64,000 bases of DNA from Acetivibrionales bacterium (GTDB lineage: Bacteria; Bacillota; Clostridia; DSM-8532). The notes beneath the pieces were generated by a model that was not told the origin of the DNA, did not search any database, and saw only the letters and a list, made by a program, of their open reading frames with translations. This document shows positions 8,921 to 60,733 of the stretch, in pieces. The stretch covers positions 28,275 through 92,274 of the forward strand of contig JBMNTI010000001.1 in assembly GCA_050945655.1 (NCBI GenBank), in the 5' to 3' direction. The position numbers and the translations under genes are program-made. Positions within the stretch are counted from its first letter, which is position 1. The number at the start of each line of letters is the position of its first letter.

Positions 8921-9006
8921 ATCCTTCTTCTAGCGTGCGGGAGCAGTGTTAACTGCGAACGCCTCTAAGCACCCTCGTTCAACCTCAAACCTCTTATTTC
9001 TTAGAT

Positions 9007-9062
9007 CTCACATTTCACTTCTCACATCTCACTTATCACATCTCACTTATCACATCTCACTT
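9007..9062. repeat. 4 x 14-bp tandem repeat (CTCACATCTCACTT-like)
   Basis: Four contiguous units: CTCACATTTCACTT, CTCACATCTCACTT, ATCACATCTCACTT, ATCACATCTCACTT. A single related unit (CTCACATCTCACT) occurs at about 44008. Confidence 0.9.
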
Positions 9063-9072
9063 CTATAAGTAC

Positions 9073-9243
9073 CATGGCTCCGGCTTGCGCTTTGCCATGA
9101 CCCCGCGTGCGGTCTTTGGTTCACGGTCGCTCAATCTTTTCTAATATAGTAACCGTACGGTGGTCGCCCTCTAAAGCGGCCGGCTTATCTTGTCGAGAAC
9201 CTTGCACCTGCCTCATTACGTTAACATCAATAGGAATCGCTGT
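9073..9243 (+). repeat. Module-B repeat
   Basis: CATGGCTCCGGCTTGCGC...GGTCGCTCAATCTTTTCTAATATAGTA...CGGTGGTCGCCCTCTAAAGCGGCCGGCTTATCTTGTCGAGAACCTTGCACC...AATAGGAATCGCTG aligns along its length with 24044..24213. A partial copy lies at 43972..44000. Confidence 0.85.
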
Positions 9244-9246
9244 CCA

Positions 9247-9400
9247 CAGCCTGTGCGAAAACTACAAACAGTATTAAACCGATGCAAGTCTAGCGGCTAT
9301 AGCTGACATTTGTCATCCTGAGCGTCAACGAAGGATCTTCTGCGGTTTAGCGCTCCATCTCCAACATCCGGTTTCCAGTCGCGCTCGCTACGCAATCCAT
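9247..9400 (-). mobile_element. Family-A element, truncated (one TIR, cassette and half of the core)
   Basis: CAGCCTGTGCGAAAAC..., then the cassette, then GCGCTCCATCTCCAACATCCGGTTTCCAGTCGCGCTCGCTACGCAATCCATGCTTAGC. It ends 8 nt before the stop of the M50 protease gene. Confidence 0.8.
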
Positions 9401-9407
9401 GCTTAGC

Positions 9408-19359: not shown

Positions 19360-22270
<2,911 letters not shown>

Positions 22271-22356
22271 CAGCCCATCCTCCAATTAATACTGCATTTT
22301 TTATGATACACTAATTTGTGCATAAATAACAGTAGTGATCATCATATAAGACGAGG

Positions 22357-22670
22357 TATGCCAGGTGACGGTTCTGCTGTCTAATGAGAAACCTTGTCCC
22401 CTGTTTTACTACGTTATCTAGTTGTGCAAGGTTTTTCATTAGTAGCCTTAGGGTACTACGGAACCTCTTTAGCCGATATCATACGTGCCGATCAGGAATT
22501 TCATCCGGAAATTATTCGCGGCTGCTACGCAATCCTGCTCCGCTTCACGCATGACATCGGCAGCAGTTCCTATCATGTTAAACATTGTGAAGCGAGAACC
22601 TTGCACCAGCACAACCTGGTAACTAACATCATTAAGTGGGCGCAAGGTTTTTATCAGGCAGAAGAACCAT
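22357..22670. repeat. Mosaic repeat island downstream of gpr (module C in minus orientation at 22455..22573 plus GAGAACCTTGCAC/GTGCAAGGTT hairpin modules)
   Basis: It is the reverse complement of the 24202..24420 island (GACGGTTCTGCTGTCT..., module C). The hairpin arms GAGAAACCTTG/CAAGGTTTTTC and GAGAACCTTGC/GCAAGGTTTTT can be seen directly. A module-B tail fragment follows at 22845..22893. Confidence 0.85.
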
Positions 22671-22771
22671 CAGACTGTGCGAAATTTTTTATATATGCAG
22701 GTAATAATATTTGATTATGCAATCGTAAATAAGCGGCGTGGTTGCTGCGATTTAAAGCGAAGCATGGATTG
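22671..22771 (+). mobile_element. Family-A element, 5' half only
   Basis: CAGACTGTGCGAAATT...AATAAGCGGCGTGGTTGCTGCGATTTAAAGCGAAGCATGGATTG, after which similarity is lost. Confidence 0.8.
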
Positions 22772-22906
22772 TGGACGTAACCCTGTTTATGAGAGAGCAA
22801 AACAGCCAAGAAACAGAGCAATCAACATTTCGGTTTATCCCACTGAGAACCCTGCGCCCGCCTCATAACGTTAAACATTTGAAGGAACCCTGGCGCTATC
22901 TCAGAT

Positions 22907-23908
22907 CTAATGTATAAACCGATCAACGTCATTGGGACCGATATTTTCATGTAACGCCATATTAATACCGTTTGCCACAAGCCTTGACAAATAATCGACA
23001 ATATCATCAGTATCTTTAGGAGTTACAATCAAATTTCCCGAATAAGGCTCCAGCAGTTCTATTATCATACGATATTTTTCTTCCCGGTCAATTCCCGACA
23101 GCATTTTATAAAACTCACTGCCTGAGCCTGCCTGATCCATCATACTATCCATCACAAGATCAAGGACATCGCTTGCCATTGTTGCCGCATCCACAACAGT
23201 AGGTATACCAATTGCTATAACCGGCACTCCCAGAGATTCTTTGTTAAGTGCCAGTCTTTTATTTCCCACCCCTGATCCGGGGGCAATTCCCGTATTTGCC
23301 AGCTGGATTGATGAATTGACCCTTTTCATGCTTCTGGATGCCAATGCATCAATGGCAATCACCAATGCAGGTTTTACATTATCAACTATACCTTTGATTA
23401 TATGCCCTGTCTCAATCCCCGTTATACCAAGAACACCGGGGGATATTGCACATACAGGCCTCTCGGTTTCATTCACTTCTTTCGGAAGGTATTCATATAT
23501 GTGTCTTGTTACCAGTACCGACTCCGCTACTTTTGGTCCGAGAGCATCGGCCGTTACATTCCAGTTGCCCAAACCTACAACTAAGACAGTATCTTTGTTG
23601 TTCAGATGAATAAGACTTTCCAGTTCCCTTGCAAGCATCCTGCAGGATTTCTCATAAAGATCCCTGCTCTTTTCTTTTACTCTGGGAATATCCAATGTTA
23701 TATAACTTCCTGCCGGTTTTCCCACCTTCTGCTCCCCCTCCGGTGTGTCCACATGTACTCTGGTAATTGCTACATCGCTGTCTCCATCTTTCTCAACTCT
23801 TATTCCTTCTCCAAAATCTACGCCCTGGGTTCTGGTCTGTGTACCGGCGCCTACCACTCTCGATTCATCAGCCATATCAGTTCTAATGACACGTGCGTAT
23901 TTATCCAT
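22907..23908 (-). CDS. gpr: Germination protease (GPR endopeptidase)
   Basis: 333 aa with an N-terminal IRTDMA pro-region and GLGNWNVTADALGP / GIAPGSGVGN motifs characteristic of the A25 GPR family. Confidence 0.9.
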   Translation of the reverse strand: MDKYARVIRTDMADESRVVGAGTQTRTQGVDFGEGIRVEKDGDSDVAITRVHVDTPEGEQKVGKPAGSYITLDIPRVKEKSRDLYEKSCRMLARELESLIHLNNKDTVLVVGLGNWNVTADALGPKVAESVLVTRHIYEYLPKEVNETERPVCAISPGVLGITGIETGHIIKGIVDNVKPALVIAIDALASRSMKRVNSSIQLANTGIAPGSGVGNKRLALNKESLGVPVIAIGIPTVVDAATMASDVLDLVMDSMMDQAGSGSEFYKMLSGIDREEKYRMIIELLEPYSGNLIVTPKDTDDIVDYLSRLVANGINMALHENIGPNDVDRFIH

Positions 23909-23989
23909 AATAAAACCTCCGGAAATTTAATCAACTCCTATTATTGACAAAACCGGAGGTTTCATTCCAACTGAAAGTAAAAAATTAGA

Positions 23990-24420
23990 ATTAGGTGTTA
24001 GATGTTAGATTGCAGACGCAAAGAGTGCCTGGAAACGTTCGAAATGGCTCCGTCTTCGCTCCGCCATGTCCCGACGTGTGGTCTTTTGCTCACGGGTCGC
24101 TCAATCTTTTCCAATATAGTATATCATGCGGTGGTCGCTCTTTGAAGCGGCCGGCTTATCTTGTCGAGAACCTTGCACCCGCCTTAAAACGTTATACTGT
24201 GGAAGGAACCGCTGTCGAAGTCATGCGTGAATCGGAGCAGGATTGCGTAGCGGCCGCGAATAATTTCCGGATGAAATTCCTGAGCGGCACGCATGATCTC
24301 TACTAAAGGTTCCAGAGTTGTACGATGGAACAGTTCTAATGTCTTATGAGAAACTTTGCACTCGCTCTATTATGTCAACAAGTGAGCGGGCGCAAGGGTC
24401 AGACAGCAGAACCGTCCCCA
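23990..24420. repeat. Mosaic repeat island upstream of gpr (module B 24044..24200, module C 24202..24317, hairpin module to 24420)
   Basis: Direct sequence matches to 9073..9243 (B), to 2201..2317 (C), and to the reverse complement of 22357..22573. Confidence 0.88.
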
Positions 24421-24424
24421 TGTC

Positions 24425-26257
24425 TTACTCCTGGTTTAGCTGGGTTTTGATTTTTTCAGCTAATTTGGAACCTATCCCCTTAACCTTTGCAATATCATCT
24501 ATATTGGCTTCTTTTAGCTTTTTAACAGAACCAAAAGCTTTAATAAGCTCTTTTTTCCGAGCCGGCCCTACTCCCTCAAGCTCGTCCAGCACCGACTTTA
24601 CTATGCGTTTCTTTCTGAGTTTTTTATTGTATTGGAATGCATATCTGTGGGCTTCATTTTGGACTGATGCCACAAACCGCAGGATATCACTATCTTTGTT
24701 TAAATCAATGCCGGTAATTCCATTTACCAAACGATGGGATCTGTGTCTGTCATCCTTAGCCATGCCCCAGACCGGAACATCTATGCCTAAGTCGGCAAGA
24801 ACTTCTTTTGCCACACTCACATGCTGTGCCCCGCCATCTACCAATATCAGGTCGGGTAAATGGCCGAACGCCTTATCTTTCGCTCCCGACAGGTATCTGT
24901 TAAAACGTCGCAGCAAAGTCTCCTGCATGCTGCCGTAATCGTTCTGCTCGGTTATCACCTTCATCTTAAAGCGTCGGTAGCTTTGATTATCAGCCTGCCC
25001 GTCACGGAACACTACCATGGAAGCCACTATTTCTGTGCTTCCCGTATTAGAAATATCATATGCTTCTATTATCCTTGGCATATTCTTTAAATTAAGAGTA
25101 TCCTGAAGTTTTTTAATAACATTCATGGATTTAGCCTGTGCGGCTATGACACTCCTTTGGTACAGCTCCAATTCTTCCCTTGCATTCTGCTCGGCCATAT
25201 TAATAAGCTCGGCCTTGACCCCTCTTTGGGGCACAATAATTGTTACTTTATTGCCACGTTTTTTCGATAGCAGCTCAGTCAAGGCTTCTCTTGACTCAGG
25301 ATCAAATTGGAGAGCTATTTCTTTCGGAATCTCGGGATTTGCTTCATAGTACTGAATAATAAATGATACTATGGCCTCGCTTTGAGGTGCCGCCCCCATA
25401 CCTTCGAGTACATAAGCCCTCTTACCGATGAGTTTGCCGCCTCTAATGGCAAGCACACTGGCAGCGTAATGCCAGTCATCTGCATAAATGGCAATAACAT
25501 CCCTTTCATCCATTTTTGTTGAGTAGACCGCTTGCTTTTTTGATAACGCTTTAAGACCTTTTATTTTGTCTCTTAAAACAGCTGCCTTCTCAAATTTCAT
25601 TTGCTCCGATAATGTGTTCATTTCATTTTCAAGCATATTAATTACATCATCATGCCTGCCGTCTAAAAAAGCCACTGCATTTTTTACATTCTCCCCATAT
25701 TCTTCATGAGTGACATTTCCGGAGCAGGGAGCGGAACACAAGCCTATATGATAATAAAGACACGGTCTTTGCTTTTTTTCACGGGAAATATTCCTCTTAC
25801 ATGTCCTGATCGGAAATAATCTTCTTAAAACCTCTATTGAATCCTTTACGGCCGACATCTTGACAAAAGTCCCAAAATATTTCGCTCCATCTTTTTCAAT
25901 CCTTCTTGTTATCTCAATTCTGGGAAATTCATCTTGTGTCGTAATTTTTATGTGAGGATAGGTTTTATCATCCTTTAACAGAATATTATATTTCGGTTTA
26001 TGCCTCTTTATCAGAGTGTTTTCAAGGATCAATGCCTCTTCTTCGGTGTTCGTCACAATATATTCAAGGGACACAACATTAGAAACCAGCATTGAAGTCT
26101 TTGAATCCCTGTCATCCCGGTGCTGAAAATAGGATTTTACCCGATTTTTAAGAATTTTTGCCTTTCCAACATAGATTATCGTTCCGTTATGGTTGCGCAT
26201 TATATAGACTCCCGGTGATTCGGGAAGATTCTTTAATGTTTCATTAATTGAAGCCAT
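24425..26257 (-). CDS. uvrC: Excinuclease ABC subunit C
   Basis: GIY-YIG N-terminus (GVYIMRN...IIYVGKA), a UVR domain, a RNase H-like endonuclease domain and a C-terminal (HhH)2. Confidence 0.96.
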   Translation of the reverse strand: MASINETLKNLPESPGVYIMRNHNGTIIYVGKAKILKNRVKSYFQHRDDRDSKTSMLVSNVVSLEYIVTNTEEEALILENTLIKRHKPKYNILLKDDKTYPHIKITTQDEFPRIEITRRIEKDGAKYFGTFVKMSAVKDSIEVLRRLFPIRTCKRNISREKKQRPCLYYHIGLCSAPCSGNVTHEEYGENVKNAVAFLDGRHDDVINMLENEMNTLSEQMKFEKAAVLRDKIKGLKALSKKQAVYSTKMDERDVIAIYADDWHYAASVLAIRGGKLIGKRAYVLEGMGAAPQSEAIVSFIIQYYEANPEIPKEIALQFDPESREALTELLSKKRGNKVTIIVPQRGVKAELINMAEQNAREELELYQRSVIAAQAKSMNVIKKLQDTLNLKNMPRIIEAYDISNTGSTEIVASMVVFRDGQADNQSYRRFKMKVITEQNDYGSMQETLLRRFNRYLSGAKDKAFGHLPDLILVDGGAQHVSVAKEVLADLGIDVPVWGMAKDDRHRSHRLVNGITGIDLNKDSDILRFVASVQNEAHRYAFQYNKKLRKKRIVKSVLDELEGVGPARKKELIKAFGSVKKLKEANIDDIAKVKGIGSKLAEKIKTQLNQE

Positions 26258-26340
26258 CTTTTCAACTCCTTAGAGCCCCTGGGTACGTAATAAAAATATC
26301 TCCCTGTTGTTTATCTTTCAAACTAAAGCGAGTTTGGAAG

Positions 26341-26367
26341 AAGAAAATAAGCCGGCATAGCCGGCTT
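26341..26367 (-). terminator. Rho-independent terminator after the HPr-like gene
   Basis: AAGCCGGC-ATA-GCCGGCTT hairpin followed on the minus strand by ATTTTCTTCTT. Confidence 0.6.
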
Positions 26368-26382
26368 AAATATAGACAAACA

Positions 26383-26646
26383 TTAATCTACCATTCCATT
26401 GTTGGCAAAGGCCTCGAGCTCATCTAAAGCGGTCGTCTCATCCCTGCCTTCGGTAATAATCGTAATATTATCTCCTGGACTGATTCCCAAAGATAAAAGC
26501 CCAAGTAAACTCTTTGCGTTAGCCTTTCTTTCACCCTTTTGGATCCATATGTTTGCCTCATAGCTTGAAGCTTTTTGTATTAACCGTGCTGCCATTTTTG
26601 ATTCAAGTCCCGTTTTACTGAAAATCGTAACTTCTCTAGATAACAT
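26383..26646 (-). CDS. HPr-family phosphocarrier-like protein lacking the His15 site (Crh-like)
   Basis: 87 aa that aligns with HPr. The GIHARPA region reads GLESKMA (His15 to Glu), while the Ser46 region KSLLGLLSLG is retained. AGGAGGA RBS. Confidence 0.8.
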   Translation of the reverse strand: MLSREVTIFSKTGLESKMAARLIQKASSYEANIWIQKGERKANAKSLLGLLSLGISPGDNITIITEGRDETTALDELEAFANNGMVD

Positions 26647-26690
26647 AATTGTATTTCCTCCTGGCTGTTACCAAGCATAACTATATATTA

Positions 26691-26699
26691 ATTATATCA
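26691..26699 (-). promoter_or_regulatory. Extended -10 element (TGATATAAT) upstream of the HPr-like gene, contributed by the end of family-D repeat
   Basis: The minus strand reads TTATGATATAAT, 45 nt upstream of the ATG. The identical 12-mer sits 43 nt upstream of lepB. Confidence 0.4.
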
Positions 26700-26840
26700 T
26701 AAATTGAAAAGCAATTCATTGCTTTGTGCCGTCATCAGACTGCATACCGCCTGTTTACAGGCGGTAACAATTTAATGATATAACGTTTTCGGATCCCCGT
26801 TCGAAATCTTCGATGTTAACGGATGGGGTTATTCTATCAT
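26691..26840. repeat. Family-D repeat, uninterrupted copy
   Basis: ATTATATCATAA-hairpin-TGTGCCGTC-hairpin-...TTAATGATA...CCCGTTCGAAA...GGTTATTCTATCAT aligns with the two halves of 51849..52250. Confidence 0.75.
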
Positions 26841-27139
26841 GTTTGTTAAGACAGCGACTACATAATATAACATGGGTTATTTCGCACCTGTTTTAAATAA
26901 TTGATTATTTTATGGAAACCATCAAATAACAAGCACTCATATTATACAATAGGAATATTAAAATTAAAAGCTGTTTTTACCGATTCGTCAGTTTGCATTA
27001 AGTTTTGGCCTGCTATTTAGAAATAATATGAATTTTTTATAGCGATCAAGAAAATGGGTGGCATATTCCATCATGCTACTCATTTCTTCCTATTAATCTT
27101 GGTGCAAATGTCCTATTTTACTTTGTCAAAATATTAGAT

Positions 27140-27517
27140 ATGATATTATTGGGTGATTATGTGAAAAGTTCTAATATACTACATTACTTAACGCAAACAG
27201 GCAAGGATATACCTGTCCGCATAGCCAAAACCTTCAGCAGCAGGTTTTGGGGCTTAATTGGAAAGAAAGAAGCAGATTACGGGCTTTTGCTTTATCCCTG
27301 CAAATCTCTCCATACTTTCTTCATGCGCTATAATCTGGATATACTTTTTCTGGATGATGACAATAGAATTGTTGCAATTAAAAGATTCGTCAAGCCTTTT
27401 TCAGTAGTGCCGCCGGTACGGGAAGCCGTGAAAGTTCTGGAATTTCCGTCCTCACTTCACGCCTCGGCATTTATGAATGTTGGTGATAAAATAACTTTAT
27501 ACAAGAATCTTGAATAA
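27140..27517 (+). CDS. DUF192 domain-containing protein
   Basis: 125 aa; ...FWGLIGKKE...CKSLHTFFMRYNLDILFLD... is the typical DUF192 (COG1430) core. The exact start is uncertain. Confidence 0.7.
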   Translation: MILLGDYVKSSNILHYLTQTGKDIPVRIAKTFSSRFWGLIGKKEADYGLLLYPCKSLHTFFMRYNLDILFLDDDNRIVAIKRFVKPFSVVPPVREAVKVLEFPSSLHASAFMNVGDKITLYKNLE

Positions 27518-27523
27518 GACCAC

Positions 27524-27574
27524 AAAGGCACCATACAGCCAAAACAAAAAGCTAGCTGCAGGCGCCTTTTTATA
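27524..27574. terminator. Bidirectional terminator between the DUF192 gene (+) and rnfB (-)
   Basis: AAAGGCACC...GGCGCCTTT outer stem with an inner CAGC/GCTG stem, followed by TTTTT on the plus strand. Confidence 0.5.
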
Positions 27575-27583
27575 TATATAATT

Positions 27584-28384
27584 TTATAAGCGCTTAACTA
27601 TTGTATTCGTTATGCATTTCTGAGGACAGACTGCGGCACATTCTCCGCAATTTGTGCATTTTTGCGGATCAATAACAGCCACATTATCCACCATGGCAAT
27701 TGCATCAGAGGGACAAACCTTGACGCATTTCTGGCAGGAGATACAACCTACCTTGCAATTTTTTCTTGTCACAGCACCCTTATCATGGCTGTTGCATTTT
27801 ACCGTGAAGCCCGACAGTACAGGGACTAGTTTAATAATTGACTTGGGACATTCGGCAACACATTTTCCGCAGCCTGTACATTTTTCCGCTATTATTGTTG
27901 CCAATCCGTTTTCTACAACAATAGCATCGAACGGGCAAACCTTCTTACAGCTTCCCAGACCTAAACAGCCATAATGGCATGCATCCATACCCCCGGCAAG
28001 AACATTTGCCGCATGACAATCCTCTATTCCCAAATAATTATACTTCATTTTCACATTATCACAATTGCCCTGGCATAAGACCCTGGCAACGTTTACATCA
28101 ATGGAACCTTCGTCAACGCCCATAAAATCCGATATGGCATTGACTACTGCTATTCCTCCGACCGGGCAGCGGCTTGCGTGAACCCCTTCATTCACGATTG
28201 CTTCTGCCAATCCGTCACAGCCTGAATATCCGCAAGCACCGCAATTGGCGCCGGGAAGCATTTCTCTGACAGCCCCGACTCTTTCGTCAACCTTTACTTC
28301 GAAAACCTTTGAAGCATATGAAAGGCCTAACCCGAATGCGAGCCCCAGACCTGAAATTACAGCTACAGGAACTAATATACTCAA
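27584..28384 (-). CDS. rnfB: Rnf electron transport complex subunit B (polyferredoxin)
   Basis: N-terminal TM, a CGACGYSGC cluster, and several CxxCxxCxxxCP 4Fe-4S motifs. Last gene of the rnfCDGEAB order. Confidence 0.92.
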   Translation of the reverse strand: MSILVPVAVISGLGLAFGLGLSYASKVFEVKVDERVGAVREMLPGANCGACGYSGCDGLAEAIVNEGVHASRCPVGGIAVVNAISDFMGVDEGSIDVNVARVLCQGNCDNVKMKYNYLGIEDCHAANVLAGGMDACHYGCLGLGSCKKVCPFDAIVVENGLATIIAEKCTGCGKCVAECPKSIIKLVPVLSGFTVKCNSHDKGAVTRKNCKVGCISCQKCVKVCPSDAIAMVDNVAVIDPQKCTNCGECAAVCPQKCITNTIVKRL

Positions 28385-52178: not shown

Positions 52179-52341
52179 TTAATGATACAAGGTTCTCGGG
52201 TACCCGTTCGAAACCTTGGATTTCGATAACGGGTGAGGTTATTATATCATAATAACAGATGTTGCATAATGGTCTTGCATCAAACAAAAAACAATGGTAG
52301 CATACAATTATACAGTAATATTAAAGGAGTTGAGATTTCTA

Positions 52342-52944
52342 ATGCCTGACCCTTACCCGGATAAGTCGGATATAGGTGATTATCTAGAAAACAGCGATAT
52401 AATAGATTCTGACCACCCGTTGGTGGCACAAATTGCAGAACAACTTACAAACGGTCATAAAGACAATCTTTCTAAAGCGCGAGTTATTTATAAATTTACA
52501 AGAGACCACATCTTTAATTCTTTCGATATTAACGCAACCAGTGTAACTATAACAGCTTCTGAGGTGTTGGACAAAGGTCATGGAGTATGTTTCGCCAGGG
52601 CTCATCTTCTTGCCGCCCTTATGAGAGCTTCGGGCATACCTGCCGGCTTCTGCTATCAAATCCGCTATTATAACGATTTAGAGAGGCTCGTTGCTCATGG
52701 ATTCAACGGAGTATATATACAGGAATTAGATAACTGGGTGCGCATTGATGCCAGTATGCATGTAGATGCCGATGACTGGAATTTTGATCCGTTCAAGGAT
52801 TCTACGGTAAGGAGCGTACAGGAAGATATCGGAGAATCCGACGACTATATCGTCTACCATTCCCCCAGCAAGAAGCTGCTAAAAGCCATGTATGTTTCGG
52901 ACACATTGGAAGAGTTCATAAATCTTATACCATCCGAAATATGA
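52342..52944 (+). CDS. Transglutaminase-like cysteine peptidase domain protein
   Basis: Cys-His-Asp core: GHGVCFARAHLLAALMRASGIPAG, ...HGFNGVY..., ...VRIDAS. The start is uncertain: 52294 has no RBS, and 52342 follows AAAGGAG at a long spacing. Confidence 0.75.
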   Translation: MPDPYPDKSDIGDYLENSDIIDSDHPLVAQIAEQLTNGHKDNLSKARVIYKFTRDHIFNSFDINATSVTITASEVLDKGHGVCFARAHLLAALMRASGIPAGFCYQIRYYNDLERLVAHGFNGVYIQELDNWVRIDASMHVDADDWNFDPFKDSTVRSVQEDIGESDDYIVYHSPSKKLLKAMYVSDTLEEFINLIPSEI

Positions 52945-52946
52945 TA

Positions 52947-53750
52947 CTATCCGCCTAGTCTGGCATGTGCCAGCTCAACAACATCCGGGACTATAATCTC
53001 AGTTTCTTTTACTATGTCCCCGTTTACTAAATAAAGCAAATACTCAATATTTCCTTCGGGACCGGTTATAGGAGAAAATGAGAGGCCTGCAACAGAGTAT
53101 CCAATGTGCAGCGAGGATTCCATGATTGAATCTAAAACTTCCTCATGAACCTTAGGATCCTTTACCACTCCCTTTTTCCCTACCTTGCTTCTTCCCGCCT
53201 CAAACTGAGGCTTCACAAGGCAGACCGCTTTGCCGTAAGGCTTCAGCAACGCTTTTAATGGCGGAAGAATAAGCTTCAGGGATATGAAAGAAACATCGGC
53301 TGAGCCAAAGTCTATAGGCTCGCTTATTTGTTCTTTGGTAACATAGCGGAAATTAGTACGCTCCATGCATACCACCCTGGGATCATTTCTGAGCTCCCAA
53401 GCCAGCTGTCCGTATCCTACATCCACCGAGTATACTTTTTTCGCGCCGTTCTTTAGCATCACATCGGTGAAGCCGCCGGTCGACGCCCCCACATCCACGC
53501 ATGTAAGGCCGTTCAGATCTATGTTAAACTCGCTGATTGCCTTTTCCAGTTTCAACCCGCCGCGGCTGACATAGGGAATAGGCTTTCCTTTAATCTCTAT
53601 AACACAGTTCTCGCTATATGTCATGCCCGGCTTATCTGCCCGCTCCCCGTCAACAAATACCAGGCCGGCCATGACTGCGGCTTTGGCCTTTTCCCGGCTT
53701 TCAAAAAGCCCCTTATTATATAAAATCAGATCCAGCCTATTTTTCTCCAT
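52947..53750 (-). CDS. tlyA: TlyA family rRNA (cytidine-2'-O)-methyltransferase
   Basis: S4 domain N-terminus plus an FtsJ-like core (VDVGASTGGFTD...DVSFISL). Conserved dxs-tlyA order. Confidence 0.92.
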   Translation of the reverse strand: MEKNRLDLILYNKGLFESREKAKAAVMAGLVFVDGERADKPGMTYSENCVIEIKGKPIPYVSRGGLKLEKAISEFNIDLNGLTCVDVGASTGGFTDVMLKNGAKKVYSVDVGYGQLAWELRNDPRVVCMERTNFRYVTKEQISEPIDFGSADVSFISLKLILPPLKALLKPYGKAVCLVKPQFEAGRSKVGKKGVVKDPKVHEEVLDSIMESSLHIGYSVAGLSFSPITGPEGNIEYLLYLVNGDIVKETEIIVPDVVELAHARLGG

Positions 53751-53902: not shown

Positions 53903-55786
53903 TCAGCCAAGCTCTTTCATAACGCTTGCTTTTATTCCTTCTGCGTCCAGCCCGTATTTTTTATATATCAATTCTCTCTTGCCATGTTCAATTCCTTTAT
54001 TAGGAAGACCGATAACCTTTGCACTGGCTCCTATACGCGCGTCGTTCAAGAGTCCTGTCACATAACCGCCAAAGCCTCCGTCCTTAATAACATCTTCAAT
54101 AACAACAACTTTCCTTGTTTTCCTTGCTGAATCCAGAATAAGCTTATCATCGGCGGGACGCAAAAATCTTGGATTGATGACCTCACAGGAAATCCCCTCT
54201 TTTTCCAATAGCCGGGCTGCTTTGAGGACAATTTCCAGCATATGTCCCACACCTATAAGAGTTACTGAGGTGCCTTCTTTCAAAACTATTCCTTTGCTGA
54301 ATTCAACAGGGATACCGGATCCGTCAAATTCACGGCCGGTACCCTTTGGATATCGTATCGCAATAGGTCCCTTATGTTTATAAACAGCATATTCCATCAT
54401 ATTTTTCAGTTCATTAGGAGATGCAGGCGATAAAATAGTCATGTTTGGTATGGTGTAAAGAAATGAAATATCATATATACCCTGGTGGGTTTCCCCGTCA
54501 TCTCCCACAACGCCTGCACGGTCTATGGCAAAAACAACTTTCAGGCTTTGCAGCGCCACATCATGGAGGATCTGATCATAAGCCCTCTGCAGGAAGGTCG
54601 AGTATATTGCCACTACTGGCCTGGCTCCTCCCATAGCCAGACCGGCGGCCAGGGTTACTGCGTGTTGTTCGGCTATACCCACATCAAAAAAGCGTTTGGG
54701 ATATAATTCTCTGAAATGTGTGAGACCTGTTCCGTCGGTCATTGCAGCGGTGATAGCAATAATCTTTTCGTCTTTTTTGGCAAGCTCACATATCTTTTCT
54801 CCGAATACGCCGGAATAATTCTCACTGCCTCCATTGACCACATGGCCGGTTTCTATTTCAAAAGGAGCTATACCGTGATAAATATCCGGATTTTTCTCGG
54901 CAAATTTATATCCCTTTCCTTTTATTGTGGTAACATGCACTAAAACCGGCCCTTTCATCGTTTTAGCCTGCTCCAACACTCTTACCATTTCCTTGATATT
55001 ATGGCCGTCGATAGGTCCGAAGTAGCGAAACCCCAAGTCTTCAAAAAACATTGACGGTATAAACATACTCTTTATTGCCGCTTTCATTTTATGCAAAATT
55101 TTTCTGAGCCGCTTTCCCGAGTTTGGCAATGAATCAATAAAGGCCTGCATTGATTCTCTGGTTTTATAATAGAACGGACGAAGCCGTATTTTGCTCAGAT
55201 ATCGGGATAGTCCCCCCACATTAGGGGCAATTGACATGCCGTTATCATTAAGAATTATCAGAAGATTAGTACGGGATATACCTGCATCATTCAATGCCTC
55301 TAAAGCCATCCCGCCCGATAATGCCCCGTCGCCGATAACAGCAGCCACCGTATAACTCTCGCCGTTTAAATCCCTTGCTCTGGCCATCCCCAAAGCAGCA
55401 GAAACAGAGGTGCTGCTATGTCCTGTGTTAAAGACGTCATATTCACTTTCCTGAGTTTTCGGAAAACCTGCTATTCCATCCAGTTGACGGAGTGAACCAA
55501 AGGAATCCTTGCGCCCCGTAAGAATTTTGTGTACATAGGTTTGATGGCCCACATCCCAAATTATCTTGTCTAAAGGGGTGTTTAAAACCTTGTGAAGGGC
55601 CAGAGTCAATTCTACAACACCCAGATTTGATGCAATATGCCCGCCTGTTTTTGAAACCGAATCCAACAAAAATAGCCTTATCTCTTCGGCCAGCAAGCCC
55701 ATTTCATCGTATGTCAGGCTTTTAAGATCGTCAGGAGTATTTATTCTTGAAAGAAAACCTTTACATGTTTCATTATTCTTAACCAA
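53903..55786 (-). CDS. dxs: 1-deoxy-D-xylulose-5-phosphate synthase
   Basis: TPP-binding GDGALSGGMALEALN, GHSSTS, and transketolase-like domains; 627 aa. Confidence 0.97.
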   Translation of the reverse strand: MVKNNETCKGFLSRINTPDDLKSLTYDEMGLLAEEIRLFLLDSVSKTGGHIASNLGVVELTLALHKVLNTPLDKIIWDVGHQTYVHKILTGRKDSFGSLRQLDGIAGFPKTQESEYDVFNTGHSSTSVSAALGMARARDLNGESYTVAAVIGDGALSGGMALEALNDAGISRTNLLIILNDNGMSIAPNVGGLSRYLSKIRLRPFYYKTRESMQAFIDSLPNSGKRLRKILHKMKAAIKSMFIPSMFFEDLGFRYFGPIDGHNIKEMVRVLEQAKTMKGPVLVHVTTIKGKGYKFAEKNPDIYHGIAPFEIETGHVVNGGSENYSGVFGEKICELAKKDEKIIAITAAMTDGTGLTHFRELYPKRFFDVGIAEQHAVTLAAGLAMGGARPVVAIYSTFLQRAYDQILHDVALQSLKVVFAIDRAGVVGDDGETHQGIYDISFLYTIPNMTILSPASPNELKNMMEYAVYKHKGPIAIRYPKGTGREFDGSGIPVEFSKGIVLKEGTSVTLIGVGHMLEIVLKAARLLEKEGISCEVINPRFLRPADDKLILDSARKTRKVVVIEDVIKDGGFGGYVTGLLNDARIGASAKVIGLPNKGIEHGKRELIYKKYGLDAEGIKASVMKELG

Positions 55787-55804: not shown

Positions 55805-56455
55805 TCAGCCGCTTTTCTTACTTTTATTCATCATGGCCTTTTTCCCCGAAAAAACAGCAAGTATGCGGCCAACCTTATATACTATGTAGTTGGAGTTGCT
55901 TATACCGATATTTTTTGCGAAGGCTTTTCCTCCAACGGTCAGCGCGGCAATCAAAGCTCCTAATAATACTTCAAATAAAGAAGTATCCGTACTATCCGAA
56001 AAAAGCTTATATATAATGGCAGTACCTGCGGCACCGCTTACTACACTGCATATATCTCCTACAACGTCATTGCAGAAGCTTGATACCCGGGGAGCGTTGC
56101 GCAAAAGATTTATTGATTGTTTTGCCCCTTTTAGTTTCTTTGATGCCATGGAATGAAAGGGGGTTTCATCGGCAGCGGTAACAGCCGTCCCAATAGCGTC
56201 AAAAATTACCCCTATTAATATTATGCTTAATACTACTAAAAAGGCATATGGAGGAGATATTGATTTAAAAATGCTGGTGGATGCGAACAATATAAGTATG
56301 GATAATGTGAAAGAAGCCACTGAAATAAAAAGACCCCATAGTATATGTTTTTTTTCAATACCAGAGCCTTTTTTTACCGGAATGGTTTCACCGGATAATC
56401 CCCTATATTTATCAAATAGTTTAATAAATTTCTTTCCCGATTTTTCTTGTTCCAA
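55805..56455 (-). CDS. oapA: OLE-associated protein A (small 4-TM membrane protein)
   Basis: 216 aa, a basic N-terminus followed by 4 TM helices. It lies immediately downstream of the OLE-like non-coding region and upstream of dxs, the canonical oapA position. TTG start with AGGA 5 nt upstream; there is no in-frame ATG alternative. Confidence 0.75.
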   Translation of the reverse strand: MEQEKSGKKFIKLFDKYRGLSGETIPVKKGSGIEKKHILWGLFISVASFTLSILILFASTSIFKSISPPYAFLVVLSIILIGVIFDAIGTAVTAADETPFHSMASKKLKGAKQSINLLRNAPRVSSFCNDVVGDICSVVSGAAGTAIIYKLFSDSTDTSLFEVLLGALIAALTVGGKAFAKNIGISNSNYIVYKVGRILAVFSGKKAMMNKSKKSG

Positions 56456-56479
56456 GTAAAAATCCTGCTTTCCCGACTT

Positions 56480-57128
56480 CTATAAAACTTAGTAATTCAA
56501 CAGGATGGCAACAATCCGAGTAAATTTTGCGGCTTAGGTCAGGCAGGTTTTCCCCGCCGGATACCGAAACGTCGCCGTTTCGGAGGTTTCCCTTTAATTC
56601 CTGCGTTGAAAGGTTTCCCTTATCAAAGCCTGATCACCACTTAGTCCACACTGCAATCCCCGGATTGCTTCATTATCAAACAGCCTAGGGGTTTTCCCCG
56701 AGAGCCTGTGCCTACTCTAGCCTCTTTTGCACCGTTGGTTTCAAGCGACAATATTGCTTATGTACCGGCCAGTACATAAACACGTGATTCACTATCCTCC
56801 AGACGGCACTCAAGGCAGGCTACACTGTCCACAGCATCAAAAGTGATACCGCGCTACAGGTTCATTCCCTTATCGTAGTCAAGATTTTTATCGTTTACAC
56901 GGGGCAATCTGTCTTCCACAATTAAGGGTCTCCACGGTAAAGGGGTCATTTCCCGCATGCCATTGCAGGCTGCCCCTAAACCTTAACTCCCAGCACCAAC
57001 CCATCACTGGGCGTAACAAGCCGGCACAAGGAACTTCATCGATGTGCCCTTTAACGGATTTTTAGGCCCGTCTTCGAAGCAGGCAGTACTGACTAGGATA
57101 CTGCGCCATCCTGATATTTTTACTATGA
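56480..57128 (-). ncRNA. OLE: OLE (ornate, large, extremophilic) RNA; ends approximate
   Basis: 695-nt gap with no credible ORF on either strand, richer in G+C than the surrounding intergenic DNA. It is packed with hairpins when read on the minus strand (GGGGAAAACCCC, CCGAAACG-GCGA-CGTTTCGG, GCAATCCGGGGATTGC, ATGTAC-TGGCCG-GTACAT) and has repeated GGGAAACC strings. Synteny nusB-xseA-xseB-ispA-[RNA]-oapA-dxs-tlyA matches published OLE loci. A TTGCAT-17-TATAAT promoter lies at 57135..57163. Not verified against the covariance model. Confidence 0.8.
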
Positions 57129-57134
57129 GAAAAT

Positions 57135-57163
57135 ATTATACACTAAAACCTGTTTTTATGCAA
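57135..57163 (-). promoter_or_regulatory. Sigma-A-type promoter for the OLE/oapA transcript
   Basis: The minus strand reads TTGCAT-(17 nt)-TATAAT. The -35 overlaps the TAA stop of the DUF212 gene. Confidence 0.5.
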
Positions 57164-57608
57164 ACAGCAACCCTACCAAAATTCCTAATGCGGCACCGGC
57201 AAAAACTTGTATCGGTGTATGCCCCAACAATACCTTCAACTCTTTATCCACTCTTATTTCCCTTGAGTGATAAATCAGTTTGTTAAGAACCTCCGCCTGT
57301 TTTCCTGCTGCCCTTCTTACACCTGTGGCATCTGCCATTACGATGAATGAAACAATAGTGGAAATAGCGAACTCACTTGAGCTTAACCCGTTTTTCACGG
57401 CCATTACGGTTGCCAGACAAACCGAGATTGCACTGTGGGAGCTAGGCATTCCCCCCGAAGCGACAAACTTTCTGAAGTCTATTTTCTGATGCTGAATATA
57501 ATGACTGATAAATTTTATCAGTTGGGCTAAAAACCATGAAAAAATTGGAAGCGTTATAGCCGTATTATAAAAAATATTATCCACCAGAGTCAATTTTGTA
57601 TCTCCCAC
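57156..57608 (-). CDS. Divergent PAP2 family protein (DUF212; acid phosphatase/vanadium haloperoxidase-related)
   Basis: 150-aa membrane protein with SGGMPSSHSA and GHTPIQV motifs. Confidence 0.85.
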   Translation of the reverse strand: MGDTKLTLVDNIFYNTAITLPIFSWFLAQLIKFISHYIQHQKIDFRKFVASGGMPSSHSAISVCLATVMAVKNGLSSSEFAISTIVSFIVMADATGVRRAAGKQAEVLNKLIYHSREIRVDKELKVLLGHTPIQVFAGAALGILVGLLFA

Positions 57609-57622
57609 GTACTAAATCTGAT

Positions 57623-58519
57623 TTATTTTTCTCTTTCTGCAATAAAGAAAGCAATCCGAGTCAGAAAATCATTATTATCTAATTCGTCCAATGCGTTTAC
57701 CGCTTTATTAACCGAATCCTTCAGAAGCTCCTTTGCCTTTTCGATTCCAAGCTTGCTTATAAAAGTAGACTTGTTGTTTTCAGCATCTCTCCCGGTAGAT
57801 TTACCCACAATTTCAATTTCGCCTTCAAAATCAAGAATATCGTCCTTTATTTGGAATGCAAGTCCAATGTTATCGGCATAAACCTCCAGTTTGGATAATA
57901 TATAATCTTCCGTTTCTAAAAGCAGTGCCGGAGCCAAAACAGAAGCCTTTATCAATGCTCCTGTCTTTTTTTTATGCATTTGGCACAACACATCATAAGT
58001 AATATCGGTCTTTTCCGATTCAATGTCTATTACCTGTCCGCCGATCATTCCCTTTGACCCGGATGCTTTAGAAATCATATATGCGGTTTTTAAGCGCCGA
58101 AACGTCTTTGCATCATCCTTCAAAGTCTCCTCCAGCATTATTTCAAACGCAAGATTCAAAAGACCGTCTCCCGCAAGTACCGCCATTGCCTCTCCAAATA
58201 CCTTATGGCTGGTAAGTTTGCCTCTCCTGTAGTCATCGTTGTCCATACATGGAAGATCGTCATGGATCAACGAGTAGGTATGAATTAATTCAATAGCTCC
58301 GGCAAAGGGGATGACTTCTTTTTTATCACCCTTCAGCATATCACAGACAGCCAGGGACAGTACCGGCCTGATCCTCTTCCCGCCTGACATTAAGCTGTAT
58401 TCCATAGCCTCATAGATTTTCTTGTCAGGCATATCCTCGCTTAAATGCCTCGGAAAAACTTTTTTGAGCCAACTCTCCGTCAGATCTAAATATCGTTTAT
58501 ACTTGACAGCAAAATCCAT
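57623..58519 (-). CDS. ispA: (2E,6E)-farnesyl diphosphate synthase / polyprenyl synthetase
   Basis: First and second Asp-rich motifs: LIHDDLPCMDNDDYRRG and FQIKDDILD. Confidence 0.93.
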   Translation of the reverse strand: MDFAVKYKRYLDLTESWLKKVFPRHLSEDMPDKKIYEAMEYSLMSGGKRIRPVLSLAVCDMLKGDKKEVIPFAGAIELIHTYSLIHDDLPCMDNDDYRRGKLTSHKVFGEAMAVLAGDGLLNLAFEIMLEETLKDDAKTFRRLKTAYMISKASGSKGMIGGQVIDIESEKTDITYDVLCQMHKKKTGALIKASVLAPALLLETEDYILSKLEVYADNIGLAFQIKDDILDFEGEIEIVGKSTGRDAENNKSTFISKLGIEKAKELLKDSVNKAVNALDELDNNDFLTRIAFFIAEREK

Positions 58520-58524
58520 TATGT

Positions 58525-58767
58525 TTAGTCATCGAGTTTAAAATCCTTCTCGATAATCCCTTCCTTTCCCTCAATCAAGAGAGTGATTCTTTTTTCGATA
58601 TCGTCCAGCTTTTTATTACACAAGCGAACAAGACCTATTCCCTTTTCAAACATTTTTATTGATTCTTCCAAAGGCAAATCCCCGCTTTCAAGCATATTAA
58701 CTACGCTTTCCAGTTCCAAAGCGGCTTGTTCATATGTAATATCAAGATTCTCTTCCTTTTTGGACAT
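58525..58767 (-). CDS. xseB: Exodeoxyribonuclease VII small subunit
   Basis: 80 aa (YEQAALELESVVNMLESGDLPLEESIKMFEKG). Confidence 0.93.
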   Translation of the reverse strand: MSKKEENLDITYEQAALELESVVNMLESGDLPLEESIKMFEKGIGLVRLCNKKLDDIEKRITLLIEGKEGIIEKDFKLDD

Positions 58768-58785: not shown

Positions 58786-59982
58786 TTAAAGCATTTTATC
58801 ACAGACAGCCTGAAATTTGCCGTCGGTCATAGTAACAACAAGCTTATCACCGGATTTTAATCCCTTTACCGATTTTATCAGCTTGCCGTTTTCATCCTGA
58901 ATAACCCCGTATCCTCTGGCTAAAACGGTCAGAGGACTTAGTGCGTTTAATTGGGCCACGACCGTTTTCAGTGAAATTCTTGTTCTTTCTAAGCCTGCTC
59001 TGCCCTGAAGTATAAGGCTTCTTTCATGAGCATCCAAAACAAGTCTTTTTTGATTTACGATTTCAAAAGGTTTTTGCAGACTCCTTACGCTTTGCAGCCT
59101 TGAAATTCTGTCCCTTTCCTTCTTCAGACCGTATGTCAGACAATTAAACAGTCTCTTTTCAACTGATTCCAAAGTGTCCTTTAAAGCCTTTTTTTCAGGC
59201 ATAACCAGTTCTGCTGCCGCTGATGGAGTAGGAGCCCTTAAATCTGCAGCAAAGTCTGAAATTGAAAAATCAGTTTCATGGCCTACCGCCGAGATTATTG
59301 GAATCCCGGATTTAGAAATGGCAATAGCCAGTCCTTCGTCATTAAACGGCCATAAATCTTCCAGTGAACCGCCGCCCCGCGCAAGAATTATTACCTCAAC
59401 ATTCCTTTTCTCATTAAAGTATCTGATGCCTTCAATCAATTGTGCCGGCGCTTCTATACCCTGAACAGCCGCACCGTATACAACTATTCTGGTATTGGGA
59501 TACCGTCTGTCCAGTATTTGAATCATATCCCTTATGACCGCACCGGTAGGCGATGTAATTACACCAACGGCTTTGGGGAGCAGTGGTATCTTTTTCTTTC
59601 TGGACGCATCAAATAAGCCCTGGGTCTCCAGCTTGCTTTTAAGCTGTTCAAAAGCCATATATAAAGCACCTGTGCCATCGGGCTGCATGTCATCTACATA
59701 AAGCTGGTACGCTCCTCCCTGGGGATAGACCGATACATAACCCCTGGCTATTACACTCATGCCCTCTTCAGGTCTGAATTTTAGACGGTTGTTCTGGGTT
59801 CTGAACATAACACATTTAATCAATGCTCCCTTATCCTTAAGCGAAAAATACATATGGCCCGAGGTATGGAGTTTAAAGTTTGAGATTTCTCCCGTTATCC
59901 AGACATTAGAAAGCAGCATGTCACTGTCGACAAGCTGCTTAATATACCTGGTTAATTCGGTAACGGTTAATGTTCTGTCCAT
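58786..59982 (-). CDS. xseA: Exodeoxyribonuclease VII large subunit
   Basis: OB-fold N-terminus (VWITGEISNFK.H.SGH.YFSLKD), catalytic core and coiled-coil tail. Confidence 0.95.
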   Translation of the reverse strand: MDRTLTVTELTRYIKQLVDSDMLLSNVWITGEISNFKLHTSGHMYFSLKDKGALIKCVMFRTQNNRLKFRPEEGMSVIARGYVSVYPQGGAYQLYVDDMQPDGTGALYMAFEQLKSKLETQGLFDASRKKKIPLLPKAVGVITSPTGAVIRDMIQILDRRYPNTRIVVYGAAVQGIEAPAQLIEGIRYFNEKRNVEVIILARGGGSLEDLWPFNDEGLAIAISKSGIPIISAVGHETDFSISDFAADLRAPTPSAAAELVMPEKKALKDTLESVEKRLFNCLTYGLKKERDRISRLQSVRSLQKPFEIVNQKRLVLDAHERSLILQGRAGLERTRISLKTVVAQLNALSPLTVLARGYGVIQDENGKLIKSVKGLKSGDKLVVTMTDGKFQAVCDKML

Positions 59983-59984
59983 AA

Positions 59985-60431
59985 TTATTCCTCCGGATCA
60001 GTGACGGTATTATTCTCTAACTCGGCAAATACTTTACCCAATACACCGTTAACAAATGTTCCGGATTGTTCTCCACCGTACTTTTTTGCCATTTCAACAG
60101 CTTCATTTATAGATACATTAACCGGAATATCTTGTCTGTACTTTATTTCATAGCAGGAGAGCCTCATAATGGCTAAATCAACCTTTGGCATCCTATTAGT
60201 AGCCCATCCTTTGGCATGGATTGAAATCAACTGATCCAGTTCCTTTTCATTATCCATGACACCGTTTACCACGTTCAGCAGATATTCCCTGTCCTGTGTT
60301 TCAGTAATTGCCTGTTCATCTATAAAACGGTCGATTTGCTCTTCAATATCTTCTTTTTGTATCTGAATCTGGTAAAGCAATTTCATGGCATTTTCACGTG
60401 TTTCTCTTCTTCCCAAAGGTTGTCCCTCCAT
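59985..60431 (-). CDS. nusB: Transcription antitermination factor NusB
   Basis: RRETRENAMKLLYQ...AILRLS-like...NEAVEMAKKYG...FVNGVL. The start is set at the internal ATG (MEGQPLG); the longer ORF-track version reads into a MITE copy. Confidence 0.92.
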   Translation of the reverse strand: MEGQPLGRRETRENAMKLLYQIQIQKEDIEEQIDRFIDEQAITETQDREYLLNVVNGVMDNEKELDQLISIHAKGWATNRMPKVDLAIMRLSCYEIKYRQDIPVNVSINEAVEMAKKYGGEQSGTFVNGVLGKVFAELENNTVTDPEE

Positions 60432-60485
60432 ATCAAAAGTCAAAGATCTAAAACCTAAACATGTCGACTCACTTCGTTTCTTATA

Positions 60486-60733
60486 CAAACTGCGCGGAAT
60501 TATCAATAGTATTAAATCTATACAAGTTTAGCGGCTATAGCCGACATTTGTCATCCTGAGCGTCAGCGAAGGATCTTCGGCGATTTAGCGCTCCATCTCC
60601 AACATCCGGTTTCCAGTCGCGCTCGCTACGCAATCCATGCTTCGCTTTAAATCGCAGCAAGCACGCCGCTTATTTACGGTTGCATAATCAAATATTATAA
60701 CCTGGATGTTAAAAACAATTTTCGCACAGTCTG
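60486..60733 (-). mobile_element. Family-A MITE-like element, long form, inverted orientation, flanked by TATA/TATA
   Basis: TIRs CAAACTGCGCGGAATT (degenerate) ... ATTTTCGCACAGTCTG. The cassette is present in reverse complement (GACATTTGTCATCCTGAGCGTCAGCGAAGGATCTT). Confidence 0.88.

Follow-up and report, generated by a model that had tools for sequence, protein, structure and literature searches.

A 64,000-nucleotide (nt) stretch of contig JBMNTI010000001.1 from an Acetivibrionales bacterium (assembly GCA_050945655.1, positions 28,275 to 92,274 of the forward strand; hereafter, the window) very probably carries a full-length OLE RNA gene (ole) on its minus strand, at positions 56489-57125, lying in the canonical ole gene cluster and with putative roles transferred from the model species in which this RNA has been studied. 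OLE (ornate, large, extremophilic) RNA is large and intricately folded, and acts at the membrane with the protein OapA in coping with stress; thousands of copies are already catalogued in this group of organisms. It is among the largest and best-conserved bacterial non-coding RNAs that lack a known biochemical job, and recent structures suggest that it may span the membrane. A preliminary description, made from the letters of the window and its open reading frames (ORFs), had proposed an OLE/oapA locus here, and this proposal is borne out by a full-length match to the Rfam family RF01071, by the family residues of the adjoining OapA protein and by the gene order. The copy is an ordinary member of a well-catalogued and already known family, of a kind that scores very high with standard annotation tools, and nothing about it departs from the known full-length class except a small, clade-specific, GNRA-capped extension in a variable region.

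Identity and family membership of the RNA

When the whole window was searched against Rfam at gathering thresholds, a single match was returned:

56489..57125, minus strand: OLE RNA gene, full-length type (RF01071, 525 bits).

The alignment, which reads 57125..56489, covers model positions 1-616 of 616 with a score far above the gathering score of 50 (E 4e-151); this is the covariance-model result that the preliminary description had anticipated. At 637 nt, the RNA differs from the model by 4 deleted positions and 25 inserted nt, and 240 of the 249 highly conserved consensus positions are identical. Its single-sequence fold (-249.6 kcal/mol) is more stable than those of dinucleotide shuffles (-197.7 +/- 7.8 kcal/mol; z = -6.6), and an RNAalifold consensus of 27 diverse OLE RNAs contains 180 pairs, with compensatory double changes in 114. 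Approximately 40% of OLE positions are near-invariant across distant lineages, many formally unpaired blocks among them.

Relatives of the 216-aa protein encoded next to the RNA were used to retrieve 80 loci from species-representative genomes, in which OLE was located by nhmmer and the neighboring genes by tblastn. OLE lies directly 5' of an oapA homologue in nearly all of the loci that reach far enough. Within the window's clade, identity is 83-93% for OLE DNA and 57-90% for the flanking proteins. The closest of the representative genomes are uncultured "Clostridiaceae/Ruminiclostridium" metagenome-assembled genomes (MAGs) with ~85% identity in OapA, and the nearest cultured relative in the locus set is Thermoclostridium caenicola; these Clostridia agree with the anaerobic or extremophilic Bacillota hosts expected of OLE. 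The sporulation genes gpr and yabP are also present in the window, and we infer the host to be an uncultured, sporulating and presumably anaerobic clostridial bacterium. The window copy is one more full-length OLE, from an as yet uncultured lineage of clostridia in anaerobic digesters; it is readily found with standard models, and it opens no new experimental route. For curators of OLE alignments and for studies of the RNA:OapA ratio, the promoter footprint, the DUF212 neighbor, the bias of oapA against ATG and a clade of oapA genes without OLE, all described below, may be of modest use.

Since the RNA retains P7, P8, P9 and the P13 site for OapB, it is of the full-length type and not one of the reduced variants, variant 1 (TANB77) or variant 2 (RF39) (PMC11332333, Fernando and Breaker), with which it shares the conserved core blocks. 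It resembles in this respect the OLE RNA of Clostridium acetobutylicum (C. acetobutylicum), a clostridial full-length RNA of 577 nt that was resolved as a homodimer by cryo-electron microscopy (cryo-EM; PMC12286853), and exceeds it in length by ~60 nt, mainly through the variable P7/P8 and P9 arms. The experimental model, H. halodurans C-125 (Halalkalibacterium/Bacillus), likewise has an OLE RNA of RF01071, the model that the window copy matches from end to end, with oapA downstream, in a shared neighborhood of isoprenoid and DNA-repair genes. H. halodurans is an alkaliphilic Bacillus, whereas the host of the window belongs to an anaerobic clostridial lineage and has been met only in metagenomes.

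The RNA lies in a non-coding gap of 700 nt (56456..57155; previously put at 695 nt) between the stop of the DUF212 gene (57156) and the start of the 216-aa gene (56455). As the preliminary description had stated, the gap holds no credible ORF: none of at least 60 aa occurs on the minus strand, the longest frames are 33-43 aa (minus) and 39-53 aa (plus), and of longer frames only the plus-strand ORF of 80 aa at 57044..57286, noted earlier, reaches into it, running antisense into the DUF212 gene. The gap had also been called more GC-rich than other intergenic DNA, which is true of most such DNA: GC content is 0.471 in the gap, 0.488 in OLE and 0.418 in the window, and 0.23-0.44 in most other intergenic stretches. 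However, two intergenic stretches are as rich, 8921-9407 (0.489) and 23909-24424 (0.469), and GC content alone is therefore not diagnostic of OLE.

Motifs for dimerization and protein binding

Judged by alignment, the predicted motifs for dimerization and for binding of OapC and OapB are present at the expected places of the window RNA:

57114-57105 with 56509-56500, minus strand: terminal P1 helix (consensus fold).
57053..57072, minus strand: hairpin with CCUAAAAAUCC loop (L4), identical to the consensus and invariant in the clade.
57034..57043, minus strand: AUCGAUGAAG, J4a/5 strand of the putative OapC kink-turn (k-turn), with every conserved Rfam position matched.
56987-56981, minus strand: GUUAAGG (J5/6), partner strand of the putative OapC k-turn (Rfam alignment).
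56892..56901, minus strand: clade-specific hairpin CGU-GUAA-ACG in the variable P7/P8 region, inside an 18-nt insertion relative to the Rfam model.
56767..56770, minus strand: self-complementary GGCC, terminal loop of the long P9 hairpin (L9.3), a consensus UGGCC loop that is clade-invariant.
56606..56627, minus strand: P13 hairpin UUUGAUAAGG-GAAA-CCUUUCAA, predicted primary OapB docking site (Rfam and clade alignments).
56564..56583, minus strand: P14.1 hairpin CCGAAACG-GCGA-CGUUUCGG, predicted secondary (weak) OapB site (Rfam alignment).

In the C. acetobutylicum cryo-EM structure, the A-rich L4 loop forms dimer bridge B1 and the GGCC kissing loop of L9.3 forms bridge B3 (PMC12286853); both loops are found, clade-invariant, in the window RNA, which is predicted to dimerize in the same manner. 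The k-turn bound by OapC has been mapped to J4a/5 and J5/6, the strands of which rearrange to form it (PMC9723947), and docking of OapB requires a GNRA loop together with a one-nucleotide bulge (PMC7936274). Here, P13 has a GNRA tetraloop at 56617-56614 and one bulged nucleotide (56622 or 56621), and a GCGA loop identical to that of P14.1 is known from P14.1 of H. halodurans (PMC7936274). The window RNA thus shares with H. halodurans the k-turn strand sequence, the GNRA-plus-bulge arrangement of P13 and the GCGA hairpin of P14.1, although the P13 loop is GAAA in the former and GUGA in the latter. The GUAA-capped P7/P8 hairpin is extra relative to H. halodurans; it covaries in relatives (CGC-GNNA-GCG, CUGCU/AGCAG) and is also predicted by the single-sequence fold.

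All of the hairpin and other short strings singled out in the preliminary description occur on the minus strand: GGGGAAAACCCC at 56699-56688, CCGAAACG-GCGA-CGTTTCGG at 56583-56564, GCAATCCGGGGATTGC at 56668-56653, ATGTAC/GTACAT at 56777-56760, GGGAAACC twice (56619 and 56592) and GGGAAAACC twice (56698 and 56554). One of them, GCAATCCGGGGATTGC, does not form a hairpin in the family structure: its 5' half is one strand of a long-range helix, completed by CUCGGAUUGUU close to the 3' end, and GGAUU stays single-stranded as a conserved block.

The OLE-proximal promoter

A promoter is predicted just upstream of the RNA:

57135..57164, minus strand: sigma-A-type promoter, with the -35 TTGCAT at 57163-57158 (or TTTGCA from 57164) and the -10 TATAAT at 57140-57135.

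The -35 overlaps the stop codon of the DUF212 gene, and transcription is predicted to start at ~57128-57126. The preliminary description had noted this TTGCAT-17-TATAAT at the stop codon; it is indeed present and its footprint is conserved in 14 loci, but it is not specific to this locus, and as a lone match it would be insignificant. Both hexamers and an 18-nt spacing are invariant in the 14 clade loci, in which identity at the spacer centre is no more than 36-57%. The promoter is also kept in loci L009 and L011, which are without DUF212 and hence free of coding constraint at this place. Of 57 loci compared, 32 have a -10-like box that ends 18-34 nt 5' of the invariant GGUGGYGCAG block, against 6-14 with such a box in control windows of equal width, and most of the remaining loci have one at 8-17 nt, as judged by eye. 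A promoter of the same kind has been shown experimentally in H. halodurans, where it raises OLE expression >100-fold (PMC3413148). Considering the -10 box 5' of OLE in most compared loci and the proven promoter of H. halodurans, the OLE-proximal promoter is a family-wide, already known feature and not a particularity of this locus.

The best promoter match of the region by sequence, TTGACT-18-TATAAT at 57593-57564 (11 of 12 positions), lies inside the DUF212 ORF, of which its TTG is probably the start codon, and it is most likely a chance match. In locus L012 (~5225-5300), an insertion of ~60 nt with a perfect hairpin, ACCCGUUAACGAAAUCGAAGAUUUCGAACGGGU, separates the conserved -10 from the start of OLE.

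OapA and its translation start

The gene downstream of the RNA has the following features:

55805..56455, minus strand: oapA, encoding a 216-aa membrane protein (adjoins ole; homologues; hydropathy).
56453..56466, minus strand: oapA ribosome-binding site (RBS) AGGA at 56466-56463 and TTG start at 56455-56453.

By its sequence, the 216-aa protein is a member of the OapA family with four predicted transmembrane (TM) segments, which a hydropathy scan places at residues 38-60, 71-89, 131-149 and 158-176. Its termini are rich in lysine (10 K/R among the N-terminal 40 aa; 6 K/R and no acidic residues among the C-terminal 20 aa). For OapA in general, a cluster of positively charged residues has been proposed as the contact to the RNA, with 2:1 binding to OLE. 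We confirmed 535 relatives, a comparison set that excludes the H. halodurans OapA itself. In an alignment with 30 OLE-adjacent homologues from Clostridia and Bacilli the protein keeps 18 of 18 invariant columns, and the family motifs FD..G.A, PFH.MA, FCNDVVGD..SG and TVGGKA.GK are all present. It thus groups with OLE-adjacent homologues, as the preliminary description had expected of an OapA.

The oapA start codon lies 33 nt from the Rfam 3' end of OLE, and no terminator-like site was found between the two in the window. GAAAGCAGGAT and TTG at the oapA start are kept throughout the clade. In 74 loci, oapA was assigned TTG 40 times, GTG 25 times and ATG 9 times (12% ATG) by a rough heuristic that takes the best Shine-Dalgarno match, the loci not being phylogenetically independent; the same heuristic gave 58-85% ATG for nusB, tlyA, ispA, xseA and xseB and 29% for dxs. 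Avoidance of ATG may throttle the translation of OapA from an abundant ole-oapA transcript. The spacer between OLE and oapA is only 33-37 nt long and without a hairpin in the window (56456-56488) and its closest relatives (L001, L003 and L005). Loci L008, L009 and L014-L018 have a stable hairpin there, sometimes with a U-run, which may act in partial termination or mark a processing site.

Five MAG loci (L037, L047, L048, L051 and L055) contain an OapA-like gene with all of the family motifs, followed by dxs-tlyA, at 5700-6010 in L037, L051 and L055, 2035-2345 in L047 and 277-587 in L048. No OLE was detected at the Rfam gathering score in the retrieved sequences of these loci. Directly upstream of oapA they instead share a conserved promoter, TTGACA-17-TATTAT, a leader of 50-110 nt, GGAGG and a TTG start. 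Locus L052, which is related to them, does carry OLE.

Proposed role of the OLE particle and alternatives

Most likely, OLE RNA would serve as a regulatory or sensor module for OapA, with OapA as the core of a CNNM/MpfA-like divalent-cation transporter devoid of CBS and CorC domains. By analogy with the model species, the proximal promoter and read-through from the upstream operon would yield an abundant, stable RNA of ~0.63 kb, an ole-oapA(-dxs) co-transcript would also be made, and translation of oapA from TTG would be weak. The RNA would dimerize and bind OapB, OapC and bS21, and dimers of OapA would tether it to the membrane or thread it through. The resulting particle may make the bacterium better able to withstand alcohol, cold, excess Mg2+ and poor carbon sources. 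A distant relationship of OapA to MpfA-type Mg2+ transporters has been published (PMC11332333, PMC12265935), and the weak similarity to CNNM found here is consistent with it: the CNNM model is matched by 24 of the 30 OapA homologues (E <= 0.01), and a likeness, albeit weak, between the membrane core and the CNNM TM domain extends across the OapA family. In contrast to MpfA/CorB/CNNM (DUF21) transporters, OapA has neither the CBS pair nor the CorC/HlyC domain, its similarity falls below the Pfam threshold, and transport by it is putative.

Several points weigh against this reading. For all of its functional steps it relies on analogy with two model species, H. halodurans and C. acetobutylicum, and the role of OLE as a transporter regulator is a hypothesis of the literature and not a demonstrated mechanism. 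OapA scores 27.4 bits (E 3e-6) against Pfam CNNM/DUF21 (PF01595), the gathering score of which is 28.4, and by the Pfam rule it is therefore a distant relative of CNNM and not a member; PDB sequence searches with OapA and with an OapA profile gave no meaningful match. A scan of the region for consensus promoters found 19 sites, compared with 19.5 expected in shuffles, so that a lone match is at chance level. Finally, neither oapB nor oapC was found in the 64-kb window, in which ten small ORFs were compared with Pfam and the two without a match with PDB, and no KOW/SBB or L7Ae-type protein occurred among the ten. Since oapB and oapC are normally unlinked to ole, little follows from their absence.

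The discoverers of OLE originally speculated that it is a ribozyme, an idea that is still repeated (PMC11332333, PMC12265935) and in which the size and conservation of the RNA stem from an active site for catalysis, the proteins serving as chaperones. The near-invariance of ~40% of positions, including many unpaired blocks, is a pattern typical of catalytic RNAs. However, nearly 20 years have passed without any reaction being found, splicing and self-cleavage were not seen in H. halodurans (PMC3413148), and structures and a review from 2025 indicate that the demands on a membrane-spanning dimer could account for the conservation (PMC12265935, PMC12286853). The window contains nothing that bears on catalysis, and we consider a ribozyme unlikely. 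Alternatively, the main action of OLE might be in cis, with control of oapA-dxs-tlyA by a very long, structured 5' leader and the free 0.6-kb RNA as a by-product. Since only 33 nt without a terminator precede oapA, the proximal promoter should also feed oapA-dxs unless its transcripts are processed, and the small share of ATG starts in oapA and dxs hints at tuned translation. Against such a leader, the H. halodurans RNA is stable, abundant, discrete and membrane-localized, and binds OapA, OapB and OapC (PMC3413148, PMC9723947, PMC7936274), and in many relatives the OLE-oapA spacer contains a hairpin, to which a U-run is sometimes added. Moreover, a pairing of the oapA RBS (GCAGGAU) with the 3' strand of P1 (AUCCUG), which we considered as a translational switch, was rejected: L009 and L011 alter P1, their RBS is left unmatched, and the pairing is thus not kept by covariation. 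A mainly cis-acting role is, on balance, highly improbable.

The favored reading also includes an active proximal promoter. Were TTGCAT-17-TATAAT non-functional, OLE would be made only by processing of a long nusB-to-tlyA transcript. The chance frequency of consensus matches is compatible with this view, a polycistronic transcript of the whole cluster is also made in H. halodurans (PMC12265935), and the -35 is partly constrained by the Phe-Ala-stop codons of DUF212. It is at odds with the invariance of hexamers and spacing around a divergent spacer centre in the 14 loci, with the persistence of both -35 and -10 in L009 and L011 despite the lack of DUF212, and with the excess of -10-like boxes over control windows; furthermore, the equivalent promoter of H. 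halodurans boosts OLE more than 100-fold, as cited above. We therefore give production by processing alone a low probability.

The DUF212 gene between ispA and OLE

Immediately upstream of the promoter lies a further membrane protein gene:

57156..57608, minus strand: DUF212/YuiD-type divergent PAP2 membrane protein (PF02681, 160.8 bits).

The match to PF02681 (threshold 26.5) spans profile positions 2-126 of 126. Since relatives are mostly 145 aa long, translation probably begins at the TTG at 57593, which predicts a protein of 145 rather than 150 aa; the relatives are named "divergent PAP2 family protein / YuiD" in their source records. Like the PAP2 phosphatases (PgpB, BcrC, YbjG) and B. 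subtilis YuiD, the protein is small, polytopic and membrane-embedded, with a PSxH motif and a second histidine motif, here PSSH and GHTP. The catalytic signature of PAP2 is KxxxxxxRP / PSGH / SRxxxxxHxxxD, the first motif of which is not recognizable in the DUF212 protein. Unlike PAP2 phosphatases, the protein belongs to the divergent branch PF02681, and the PAP2 model itself (PF01569) scores 21.6, below its threshold of 27.2. We know of no characterized substrate for DUF212 (PF02681), and a PDB sequence search with the protein gave no meaningful match. The gene adjoins that of farnesyl diphosphate synthase, which suggests that a lipid or polyprenyl phosphate might be the substrate.

The preliminary description had suggested that DUF212 between ispA and OLE may be lineage-specific. 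This view did not hold: the gene occupies that place in 19 of the 55 loci having both ispA and OLE, among them all loci of the close clade other than L009 and L011, as well as distant lineages, in which DUF212 is 41-54% and OapA 42-50% identical, and it is therefore a recurrent neighbor. DUF212, YuiD or PAP2 are not mentioned in the searchable OLE literature, a body of text that does not include the published list of ole neighbors (Breaker et al. 2023). Its recurrence across distant OapA lineages, together with the stop codon inside the promoter -35, led us to consider that DUF212 is functionally coupled to the OLE particle and acts on a polyprenyl or lipid phosphate that OLE-OapA senses or influences. 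We regard such coupling as quite improbable; if true, it would provide a concrete biochemical link from OLE to the isoprenoid genes ispA and dxs that are always around it.

The gene cluster and other parts of the window

By Pfam and NCBIfam assignments, the gene order is nusB-xseA-xseB-ispA-DUF212-OLE-oapA-dxs-tlyA, in keeping with the earlier suggestion that it fits an OLE/oapA locus. The remaining cluster genes are:

59985..60506, minus strand: nusB, first cluster gene in the window (Pfam NusB, 133.8 bits).
58786..59982, minus strand: xseA, exonuclease VII large subunit (Pfam Exonuc_VII_L, 298.9 bits).
58525..58767, minus strand: xseB, exonuclease VII small subunit (Pfam Exonuc_VII_S, 72.5 bits).
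57623..58519, minus strand: ispA, farnesyl diphosphate synthase (Pfam polyprenyl_synt, 190 bits; NCBIfam FPPsyn, 344 bits against a cut-off of 275).
53903..55786, minus strand: dxs, DXP synthase (Pfam DXP_synthase_N, 407.5 bits), beginning 18 nt past the oapA stop.
52947..53750, minus strand: tlyA, rRNA 2'-O-methyltransferase (Pfam FtsJ and S4; NCBIfam TIGR00478, 278.6 bits).

Relative to H. halodurans, the cluster differs by the DUF212 gene between ispA and ole and by the absence of folD, which is missing between nusB and xseA. The usual continuation past tlyA is ppnK-argR-recN. These genes are absent after tlyA in the window (52294-52944), where a convergent transglutaminase-like gene, a signal peptidase and a CPBP/Rce1-like protease are found instead. 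A gene for the phosphotransferase system (PTS) phosphocarrier HPr lies at 26383-26646, ~30 kb from ole on the same strand. A carbon-source phenotype related to OLE has been reported (PMC10898510), and at this distance the linkage of the HPr gene to ole is probably not meaningful.

No tRNAs were found in the window. The other GC-rich intergenic stretches (8921-9407 and those within 22200-27650) gave no Rfam match at E <= 1, and 8921-9407, the only one of them that was folded, gave no fold signal (z = +1.2). This stretch of 487 nt (GC 0.49) lies between a peptidase-M50 gene and mfd, and contains a short tandem repeat of GUGAGAU/GUGAUAA units.

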